NCBI RefSeq assembly: GCF_988243305.1
Contig: NZ_OZ547136.1
DNA: 64,000 bases
Direction: 5' to 3' (one strand)
This document shows, in pieces, positions 4,166-48,364 of this stretch. The notes under the pieces were generated by a model. It was not told where the DNA came from. It was given only the letters and a program-made list of their open reading frames with translations, and made no database searches. The position numbers were made by a program, and so were the translations under genes. Position 1 is the stretch's first letter. Each line of letters opens with the position of its first letter.

Positions 4166-5173
<1,008 letters not shown>

Positions 5174-5809
5174 ATGCGTCTGACAGCAAAACAGGTGACA
5201 TGGCTGAAAGTTTGCCTGCATCTTGCCGGATTGTTGCCGTTTCTCTGGCTGGTCTGGGTGATTAATCACGGTGGACTGGGTGCCGATCCGGTGAAAGATA
5301 TTCAGCATTTTACCGGTCGCACTGCACTGAAATTTTTGCTGGCGACCTTGTTAATCACACCTCTGGCACGCTACGCAAAACAGCCGTTATTGATACGCAC
5401 TCGCCGCCTGTTAGGATTATGGTGCTTTGCCTGGGCGACACTGCATTTAACCAGTTACGCATTGCTGGAGCTGGGCGTGAATAATCTGGCGTTATTAGGT
5501 AAGGAGTTAATTACCCGGCCTTATTTAACGTTAGGAATTATCAGCTGGGTTATTTTGCTTGCTTTAGCGTTCACTTCAACCCAGTCGATGCAGCGAAAAC
5601 TCGGCAAACACTGGCAACAGTTGCATAACTTCGTCTATCTTGTCGCGATCCTGGCCCCAATACATTATCTGTGGTCAGTGAAGATTATTTCACCGCAGCC
5701 ACTCATCTACGCTGGGCTGGCTGTACTGCTTTTAGCCTTACGGTATAAGAAGTTGCTTTCCCTTTTCAACCGGTTACGCAAGCAGGCCCACAACAAATTA
5801 TCTCTATAA
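5174..5809 (+). CDS. msrQ: heme-binding membrane subunit of MsrPQ
   Basis: 211-aa polytopic membrane ORF starting immediately after msrP; matches recalled YedZ/MsrQ. Confidence 0.9.
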
Positions 5810-5840
5810 CTTCATATTGCCGACAAACTTCGCGTTATCC

Positions 5841-5873
5841 CGGCCGGATGCGGCGCGAGCTCCCTATCCGGCC
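5841..5873. repeat. REP-like palindromic unit
   Basis: GC-rich imperfect palindrome cggccggatgcggcg...ccctatccggcc just downstream of msrQ, resembling enterobacterial REP elements. Confidence 0.5.
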
Positions 5874-6011
5874 CACACAGATCGCATCAAGTTATGTTTC
5901 GTTTGTCATCAACCTTTCATCACCAGAATAATTTATTTTATTTCAATAAGATAGTTCAATACACCTGAGAATACCATGCTCTCATTTCCTAATGAGTTGT
6001 TGCATTTTTTC

Positions 6012-6032
6012 ATATGTTACAATATAACATTA
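6012..6032 (+). promoter_or_regulatory. Zur box (zinc uptake regulator operator) upstream of zinT
   Basis: Palindrome atgttacaatataacat matches the Zur consensus core (TGTTATA-N-TATAACA) about 35 bp upstream of the zinT start. Confidence 0.7.
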
Positions 6033-6066
6033 CACATCATGTACATTAACTCTGGAGGAAATTGTT

Positions 6067-6717
6067 TTGGCGATTCGTCTTCATAAACTGGCTGTTGCTT
6101 TAGGTGTCTTTATTGTTAGCGCTCCTGCCTTTTCGCATGGTCATCATTCTCATGGCAAACCCTTAACAGAGGTCGAACAAAAAGCTGCTAATGGTGTTTT
6201 TGATGATACCAATGTACAAAACCGAACGCTCAGTGACTGGGATGGAGTCTGGCAATCCGTTTACCCTTTACTGCAAAGTGGCAAACTTGATCCCGTCTTT
6301 CAGAAGAAAGCGGATGCAGATAAAACCAAAACATTTGCTGAAATTAAAGATTATTATCGCAAAGGTTATGCGACAGATATCGAAATGATTGGCATTGAGG
6401 ACGGCATTGTCGAATTCCATAGAAATAATGAAACAACATCCTGTAAATATGATTACGATGGATACAAAATACTCACCTATAAATCAGGCAAGAAAGGCGT
6501 TCGTTACTTATTCGAATGTAAAGATCCTGAAAGCAAAGCCCCTAAATATATACAATTTAGCGATCATATAATTGCACCACGAAAATCATCTCATTTTCAC
6601 ATTTTTATGGGTAATGATACCCAACAGTCTTTATTGAATGAAATGGAAAACTGGCCAACGTATTATCCCTATCAGTTGAGTAGCGAAGAAGTGGTCGAGG
6701 AGATGATGTCTCATTGA
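6067..6717 (+). CDS. zinT: periplasmic zinc/cadmium-binding protein
   Basis: 216-aa ORF with His-rich N-terminus after the signal peptide (HGHHSHG); TTG start as given by the ORF track. Confidence 0.88.
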
Positions 6718-6805
6718 TTTTTTTGCGCTGACTTCAGTTATTTAACAGAACAGTGCCTGGTAGTAACAACAATAATTTACCAAGACAAATAAGTAAGACA
6801 AACTC

Positions 6806-6838
6806 AGACACGCTCATACTTGAGTCGTGTCTTTTTTA
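6806..6838 (+). terminator. rho-independent terminator downstream of zinT
   Basis: Stem agacacg / cgtgtct followed by a T-run (ttttttatt). Confidence 0.55.
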
Positions 6839-7386
6839 TTATGTCTGTAGAAAAAAACTGCGAAAAAGGCGAACAATAAATACACAACTCAGCCATACAG
6901 ACTAGCAGCGCAAATGTTTCCAGGAGCAAGTCATCTGTCATGGTAAAACTAACCATAAATATAGGTTAATTTTGATGTTTAAACCTTTTTTACTTGTTAG
7001 TATGATACAAAGGCTTTCAAAAAAGCTGGGAAATTCAACAACTCTTGGAAATTATGGACTTTGTCCCGCAGCTTTAATCTGACGGCCGCGTTCCTTTTTT
7101 GGCTCAATTATTGACCCCTTCTCTACGCAACTTCAGTTCCCGCCAGCAACTTTGCGGCAGTTTCATAGGATCAATGTCTAAAAGAATAATGGTGACCGAT
7201 AAGAAAACGACTGAATAACTGTAGATTTTCGCTCGAAACCTTCCTGTCAGACCCATAGCGAATCAAGTGCTGAATGTCACAGTATCGAACAGAAAACAGT
7301 GACGATCTAACCCTTCAAGAATATTCTACGAATGTTCTGTTTAGGAAAAGCAAGGCGGGAAGTCGAGAGATAAGTCATTGATAAAG

Positions 7387-16357: not shown

Positions 16358-16434
16358 GGGAGTAACTGAATTTCCTGATGAATTTTTACGGACGCCAAAA
16401 ACGACAATTCAGGGTGGCGTTCTGAGAATTAATG

Positions 16435-16456
16435 TGAATAATAACCATTATCAATA
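16435..16456. promoter_or_regulatory. Fur-box-like operator in the divergent ybtP/ybtA promoter region
   Basis: gaataataaccattatcaataa resembles the GATAATGATAATCATTATC Fur consensus. Confidence 0.55.
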
Positions 16457-17607: not shown

Positions 17608-17630
17608 ATTGTTAATAATTATTATTCTCA
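17608..17630. promoter_or_regulatory. Fur-box-like site in the irp2 promoter
   Basis: AT-rich gttaataattattattctcat between the palindromic repeat and the irp2 ribosome-binding site. Confidence 0.5.
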
Positions 17631-46851: not shown

Positions 46852-47193
46852 TAAGTTATGAACCTTCTTATCAGAAATAGATGTGAAGGATTAAGTAAGA
46901 CATCTGGCAAATAGCCTGCAATAAACGCGGGCTGTTTGCTTCCTTGGGCAGATGCGAGTTTTATTATCGTCTTAATGATTTCCACATATTAAAAGCAAGT
47001 ATGCTTTCAAAACACAATTATAAAAAATCCCGCCAACAACATTAGTTTTTATAAAATTAAATATAAGATTATGGCTTTAGAATATTTTTATTTCTAATAG
47101 ACGAGATTTTTCCTGTTATGATATAATATGCTGAATTAACACATGTTAACGATTTACCAGTAATGTAAATAAATTTTCGAGGAGATCATTCCA

Positions 47194-47952: not shown

Positions 47953-48364
47953 TCTCATATAATCCTTATAAAAATATAATGTTTAACTCGTCATATTGCT
48001 TATAAAAAATCCCCGTTCCCAGAGAAATAATATTTATTAAAATGGCAGGTCTTCTTTTTCTGATTACCGAAGACAAAGTGGCAATTACGTATAGTTTCCC
48101 GATAAAGACGCGACAGCTACATCCCGCATAAGGCATTTTTCTCTTTATCTTTGTACGGTACTTCATGGAACAGAATTTTTGACCTTGTGAATCGTGATGT
48201 CTGTTGGGGAGGAGCAATTTGCTCACTGAAGCGTGAGACTCGATTAAGCGCACGAAACACAGAAATCAAAAAACCCGGCCACTTTTTTACAAACTGACCG
48301 GGTAAAAATAATTTTTATTTTTTAACTGCCTTGAGACTCATAGAGATGTCTCAAAACTAAAATT

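Follow-up and report, generated by a model that had tools for sequence, protein, structure and literature searches.

The predicted Zur operator of the zinT promoter: extent, register and conservation in Escherichia coli and across Enterobacterales

Results

The zinT locus and its neighbourhood

The stretch of DNA analysed here (the window, 64 kb of contig NZ_OZ547136.1) carries, in this order, hiuH, msrP (4169-5173), msrQ (5174-5809), zinT, tRNA-Ser, mtfA and tRNA-Asn, followed by the yersiniabactin island. The zinT region was found in 5417 of 5426 complete E. coli genomes and is 99.9% identical to that of the uropathogenic strain 118UI. The features on which the analysis turns are as follows.

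6000-6005, + strand: candidate -35 hexamer TTGCAT (3/6 to TTGACA), 17 bp upstream of TATAAC
6012-6040, no strand: population-invariant block around the Zur box, defined by 35-mer identity; about the size of the K-12 Zur footprint of ~30 bp (PMC4219657)
6014-6030, no strand: palindrome ATGTTAcAATATAACAT (the 17-mer ATGTTACAATATAACAT), an 8-1-8 inverted repeat with the first predicted Zur-dimer site inside it
6015-6034, + strand: predicted Zur box, two-dimer operator TGTTACAATATAACATTACA, 20/20 to the structure-based pattern TGWNAYRWTATAWYRTNWCA
6016-6028, no strand: dimer-1 element RNNNYxxxRNNNY (G6016..C6020 / A6024..C6028), from the sequence and the rule in PMC4219657
6021-6033, no strand: dimer-2 element RNNNYxxxRNNNY (A6021..T6025 / A6029..C6033), from the sequence and the same rule (PMC4219657)
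6023-6026, no strand: central TATA of the Zur box, contacted by Zur Tyr45 according to PMC4219657
6023-6030, + strand: candidate -10 region, TATAAC (6023-6028) or TAACAT (6025-6030), inside the Zur box, placed from PMC5916954
6054-6058, + strand: Shine-Dalgarno GGAGG of zinT, separated from the TTG by 8 nt and unchanged among E. coli alleles
6067-6717, + strand: zinT coding sequence with a TTG start, from the list of open reading frames, with a Pfam match to PF09223 (ZinT, E = 4.6e-85) and the same coordinates in the RefSeq annotation of strain 118UI

The start context TTTTGGC, with the TTG at 6067-6069, was kept at orthologue starts across many Enterobacterales genera, and the non-canonical TTG start looks maintained. 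Downstream, the interval 6718-7386 lacks yodB between zinT and tRNA-Ser, as in 118UI, whereas yodB (cytochrome b) occupies this place in a K-12-type genome. Upstream, just past msrQ, lies a GC-rich imperfect inverted repeat (5842-5873; GGCCGGATGCGGCGC / GCTCCCTATCCGGCC), which we take to resemble a REP element. The msrQ-zinT region (5810-6720) occurs in deeply diverged haplotypes: over 911 bp, identity to the window was 99% or more in 1184 genomes and only 90-95% in 3352. The spacer at ~5910-5990 was especially variable, and this allele carries a 1-nt insertion near 5992. Such divergence is high for a core E. coli locus and is possibly linked to the nearby tRNA/island hot spot.

The yersiniabactin High Pathogenicity Island (8468-38990) sits 1.8 kb beyond zinT on the downstream side, inserted at tRNA-Asn, and contains an integrase, ybtS-X-Q-P, ybtA, irp2, irp1, ybtU-T-E and fyuA. 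No Zur-like site above background was seen anywhere in this island, although ybtX is annotated as a zinc transporter. Fur-like sites scoring 15/19 were present between ybtP and ybtA (16434-16452) and upstream of irp2 (17611-17629), and an AT-rich Fur-like cluster (14-15/19) lies at 58458-58514, a region of IS remnants and pseudogenes in strain 118UI.

The palindrome is one of two overlapping dimer sites

The first-pass annotation had placed a palindromic operator at 6012-6032 (ATATGTTACAATATAACATTA). A palindrome is indeed present, at 6014-6030 (ATGTTAcAATATAACAT), centred on A6022 and complementary at 7 of 8 arm positions (C6020 and A6024 do not pair), and zinT begins 37 bp downstream of it. 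The symmetry of this palindrome does not in itself exceed what chance would produce: 35 palindromes of the 8-1-8 type with 7/8 or more complementary positions occurred in the window, compared to 29.0 ± 6.0 in local shuffles. The non-random part is the sequence content.

The E. coli Zur box was defined from the Zur-DNA structure as two overlapping RNNNYxxxRNNNY elements, with the skeleton RNNNYRNNRYNNYRNNNY and the IUPAC pattern TGWNAYRWTATAWYRTNWCA (Gilston et al. 2014, PMC4219657). Within the 64 kb window, this pattern was matched with zero mismatches only at 6015-6034. The 20/20 match is partly circular, as the K-12 zinT operator, whose sequence is the same, is one of the three sites behind the pattern. 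The skeleton is likewise present, with the dimer-2 element offset from the dimer-1 element by 5 bp, and the centre of the dimer-1 element coincides with the palindrome centre at 6022. The palindrome thus corresponds to one Zur-dimer site, and to that extent the earlier placement held; it left out the second dimer site, and the box ends at 6034, 4 bp past the palindrome and 2 bp past the end at 6032 given before. The central TATA, contacted by Tyr45, sets Zur boxes apart from Fur boxes (PMC4219657).

The description of the site as a near-consensus Zur box was borne out by the pattern match and by the identity to K-12. A 23-bp Zur consensus, GAAATGTTATANTATAACATTTC, is reportedly due to Panina 2003 (PNAS); the zinT site agrees with it at 18 of 22 specified positions.

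Matrix scores single out the zinT site and leave two registers close together

We took the other validated operators from a K-12-type genome (znuAC TGTGATATTATAACATTTCA, ykgM GGTTATGTTATAACATAACA and pliG TGTTATATTATAACAGTTCA) and trained a symmetrised matrix on these three sites, leaving zinT out. With this zinT-free matrix, the two top scores of the window both fell at the zinT site and the next best was far lower. The top score was equalled in 1-2 of 200 shuffled windows, a frequency that holds for a matrix with three training sites only. Leave-one-out scores were as follows.

znuAC: 24.0
ykgM: 24.6
pliG: 23.6
zinT: 20.9
Best background elsewhere in the window: 11.0-11.6

It had been stated beforehand that a score low in comparison with those of validated sites would count against the operator. 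This was not seen: zinT reached 20.9 against 23.6-24.6 for the validated sites, and the rest of the window did not exceed 11.6. The zinT score was the lowest of the four, even though zinT is reported to be among the two tightest binders. The proposed comparison with the znuA/znuC operator likewise favoured the reading, with 16 of 20 positions identical to the zinT box.

The matrix could not tell apart two registers offset by 5 bp, scoring 6010-6029 at 20.5 and 6015-6034 at 20.9 over 20 columns; with 26 columns, the upstream register outscored the downstream one. We prefer 6015-6034, because the upstream register carries two pattern mismatches compared to none, because its outer RNNNY needs a purine at 6011, where the base is C or T, because positions 6008-6011 are polymorphic in E. 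coli while 6031-6040 are fixed, and because the published position of the box, -23 to -4 (PMC5916954), fits 6015-6034 instead.

Weak Zur-like sites at 47106-47136, 39630-39649 and 47967-47986 had three mismatches each and scores within the shuffle range, and we took them as chance. The first of these (TGTTATGATATAATATGCTG) lies in the AT-rich amn-yeeN intergenic region and is probably a chance occurrence.

The box overlaps the predicted -10 region of zinT

The zinT Zur box has been placed at -23 to -4 (PMC5916954), which puts the predicted transcription start near 6038 and Zur over the -10 region. The candidate -35 hexamer TTGCAT was invariant in 9 of 10 E. coli alleles, AR_0077 differing at one position. 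A sigma-70 consensus scan of 5750-6900 called no promoter over the Zur box; its only hit, TTGTCA-18-AATAAT at 5903-5932, did not raise the number of hits above that in shuffles. We therefore treat the zinT promoter hexamers of this strain as candidates.

The operator block is nearly invariant in E. coli

We queried E. coli genomes with two 35-mers, one spanning the operator (6008-6042) and a control 60 bp upstream (5950-5984). The operator 35-mer had a match in 5416 genomes, of which 4654 were at 100% over the aligned part (at least 6012-6040 in nearly all sampled alignments), 717 had one mismatch and 44 had two. The control 35-mer had a match in 3118 genomes, with 739 at 100% and 1694 at 80-90%, and was without any match in 2308. 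Variants in the sample were T6015C, G6016A, C6035T, and A6014G together with A6036G and C6038A. G6016A was the sole sampled variant inside the dimer-1 element, and it keeps the purine; positions 6017-6034 were unchanged in all 10 E. coli alleles examined. These patterns point to strong purifying selection on the Zur box and its position.

The box persists upstream of zinT across Enterobacterales genera

We scanned one genome per species with a DNA pattern for the ZinT motif DWDGxWQSVYP, which returned 111 stretches, and looked in loci with enough upstream sequence for a site scoring at least 17 with the zinT-free matrix.

Enterobacterales (other species): 72 loci, 72 with a site
Alphaproteobacteria: 5 loci, 4 with a site
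Firmicutes and others: 21 loci, 0 with a site

The Enterobacterales sites lay 200-223 nt upstream of the ZinT motif (median -214), with the window's own at -220, and in each of these loci no other position scored as high. The RNNNY skeleton was retained in 69 of the 72. When the loci were stacked by register, the flanks were unalignable between genera and the box persisted. None of the 21 Firmicutes and other loci scanned had a Zur-like site scoring at least 17 upstream of the ZinT motif.

In other Enterobacterales, among them Citrobacter, Enterobacter, Salmonella, Pantoea and Serratia, the zinT box has the skeleton of the present one and stands in the same place with respect to the coding sequence. 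Most other genera have the more symmetrical TGAAATGTTATAATATAACA or its complement, whereas the form TGTTACAATATAACAT[T/A]ACA was seen in Escherichia only.

Two further observations came from this set. A genome labelled E. coli strain E69 (CP089930.1) has a zinT-like gene with another Zur box (TGTTATGTTATAACATCTAA) and another N-terminal region, and may represent a mislabelled species or a paralogue. In four loci from Ensifer, Agrobacterium and Rhizobiales, an enterobacterial-looking box (for example TGTAATGTTATTACATATCC) stands 227-271 nt upstream of the coding motif; zinT and its box appear to be associated across classes in these alphaproteobacterial orthologues.

Discussion

A Zur operator in the zinT promoter

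The segment 6015-6034 is almost certainly the Zur operator of the zinT promoter, at which zinc-loaded Zur would repress zinT. This assignment draws on the 20/20 pattern match, the identity to K-12, the matrix scores, the invariance within the species, and the presence of a site at a matching position across genera. Zinc-responsive control of zinT by Zur, as put forward in the first-pass annotation, has been published for the identical K-12 operator: two Zn-Zur dimers bind it cooperatively on opposite faces of the DNA with a footprint of ~30 bp, its Kd-app of 0.053e-18 M2 is among the tightest of the regulon, and zinT is repressed 984-fold in MG1655 when wild type is compared to a zur deletion (PMC4219657). 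In O157:H7, zinT is Zur-dependent and derepressed in zur deletion strains (PMC3053223), and the zinT promoter of strain Nissle is induced 18-fold by calprotectin zinc chelation in minimal medium (PMC10410751). Binding, stoichiometry, affinity, fold repression and the position relative to +1 are all literature values for the identical K-12 sequence.

The switch would thus be expected to work as follows. With zinc in sufficient supply, zinc-loaded Zur would bind cooperatively as two dimers, one per RNNNYxxxRNNNY element (6016-6028 and 6021-6033) and on opposite faces of the DNA, jointly covering ~30 bp. Bound to a box that spans roughly -23 to -4 and takes in the -10 region, Zur would block RNA polymerase and keep zinT off. 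As cytosolic zinc falls, Zur would lose its regulatory zinc and leave the DNA, and ZinT, a periplasmic zinc-binding helper of ZnuABC, would then be produced.

Comparison with known operators

The closest known system is the K-12 zinT (yodA) operator (Gilston et al. 2014, PMC4219657). Its 20-bp box and the block 6012-6040 are identical here, as are the position relative to the gene, the Shine-Dalgarno and the TTG start. Near the box, positions 6008-6011 and 6041 differ, and the 1-nt insertion near 5992 is an addition in the present allele; further upstream the spacer is heavily diverged, and yodB is missing downstream. Earlier work on the K-12 zinT operator is said to include that of Panina 2003 and Graham 2009 (JBC).

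The znuA/znuC bidirectional operator (crystal structure 4MTD) has the same two-dimer skeleton and central TATA as zinT. It differs from zinT in serving two divergent promoters, in having a ~150-fold lower affinity for Zur (Kd-app 8.2 versus 0.053 x 10^-18 M2), and in being repressed only ~7-fold (PMC4219657). The ykgM (L31p) and pliG operators carry the same motif, with 15/20 and 16/20 positions identical to the zinT box, respectively. The ykgM site is a perfect 18/18 palindrome, whereas zinT is self-complementary at 10 of 18 positions over the matching 18 bp; the pliG operator forms a single-dimer intermediate (PMC4219657). The Fur box (GATAATGATAATCATTATC) is bound by a protein of the same family and is also an AT-rich inverted repeat with overlapping dimers; the zinT site matches it at 11 of 19 positions only, and has the Zur-specific central TATA.

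Alternative accounts of the site

The alternative that fared best is unlikely, and would add to the Zur explanation and not replace it. It describes a composite operator, with Zur as the main repressor and a second regulator, either apo-ZntR, which would act from a partial ZntR site close by to speed the release of Zur, or the regulators of yodA cadmium induction. In one study, partial ZntR recognition sequences are reported at all four Zur promoters, and ZinT was derepressed earlier in a zntR-apo strain (PMC11618457). At 6049-6057 we found ACTCTGGAG, which follows the Zur box at a distance of 15 bp and corresponds exactly to one half of the dyad in the zntA promoter. We verified that dyad upstream of zntA in 5413 genomes; the half-site occurred once in the window compared to 0.49 expected. 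However, the full ZntR dyad (ACTCTGGAGTCGACTCCAGAGT) within a long promoter spacer was not present, as only one half-site could be recognised (12/22 overall). The half-site overlaps the zinT Shine-Dalgarno, which is a constraint in itself, and is confined to Escherichia, with at least three mismatches in 73 of 78 orthologous promoters. ZinT is also induced by cadmium in O157:H7 (PMC3053223), but this is explicable via Zur, with cadmium displacing or depleting zinc. A role for ACTCTGGAG as an Escherichia-specific landing pad for apo-ZntR that would speed Zur release, along the lines of the 'through-DNA' idea of PMC11618457, seems still less probable than a composite operator in general. If such a landing pad did exist, the zinT switch would be faster in Escherichia than in enterobacteria without the half-site.

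It is very improbable that the palindrome is a chance AT-rich repeat, a -10/spacer region that holds no site for a repressor, or a hairpin or cruciform formed by the DNA. The frequency of such palindromes in the window was at the chance level, as noted above, and a box overlapping the presumed -10 region would be expected to be conserved in any case. Against these readings, the RNNNY skeleton was kept in 69 of 72 orthologues across genera while the -35 region and flanks diverged, the likeness to three unrelated Zur-regulated promoters would be left unexplained, and Zur binding has been published for the identical sequence. The hairpin was rejected as weak (-2.8 kcal/mol as DNA).

We rejected a Fur (iron) box in place of the Zur box as scarcely credible: boxes of the Fur family are all AT-rich inverted repeats of similar composition, but around the site the 19-bp Fur consensus was matched at no more than 11/19 positions while the yersiniabactin promoters in the window reach 15/19, the central TATA typical of Zur boxes is present (PMC4219657), and validated Zur sites give the zinT site a high matrix score.

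Significance

With the Zur operator as the preferred reading, the expectation of the first-pass annotation that the site would be familiar and not novel was correct. The zinT Zur operator is textbook knowledge: predictions, footprints and thermodynamic measurements of it exist, and it has served in biosensors. Its value here is that of a positive control, in which a functional operator was recognised from raw sequence by a reader without tools. It also carries a caution, in that palindromic symmetry alone was statistically uninformative and all the weight lay in the sequence content. What the present analysis adds is, first, the boundaries of the box, 6015-6034 within an invariant block at 6012-6040, and the assignment of the palindrome to one of a pair of overlapping dimer sites. 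Second, it adds population-scale and cross-genus evidence that points to selection on the Zur site of zinT, within E. coli and among the Enterobacterales.
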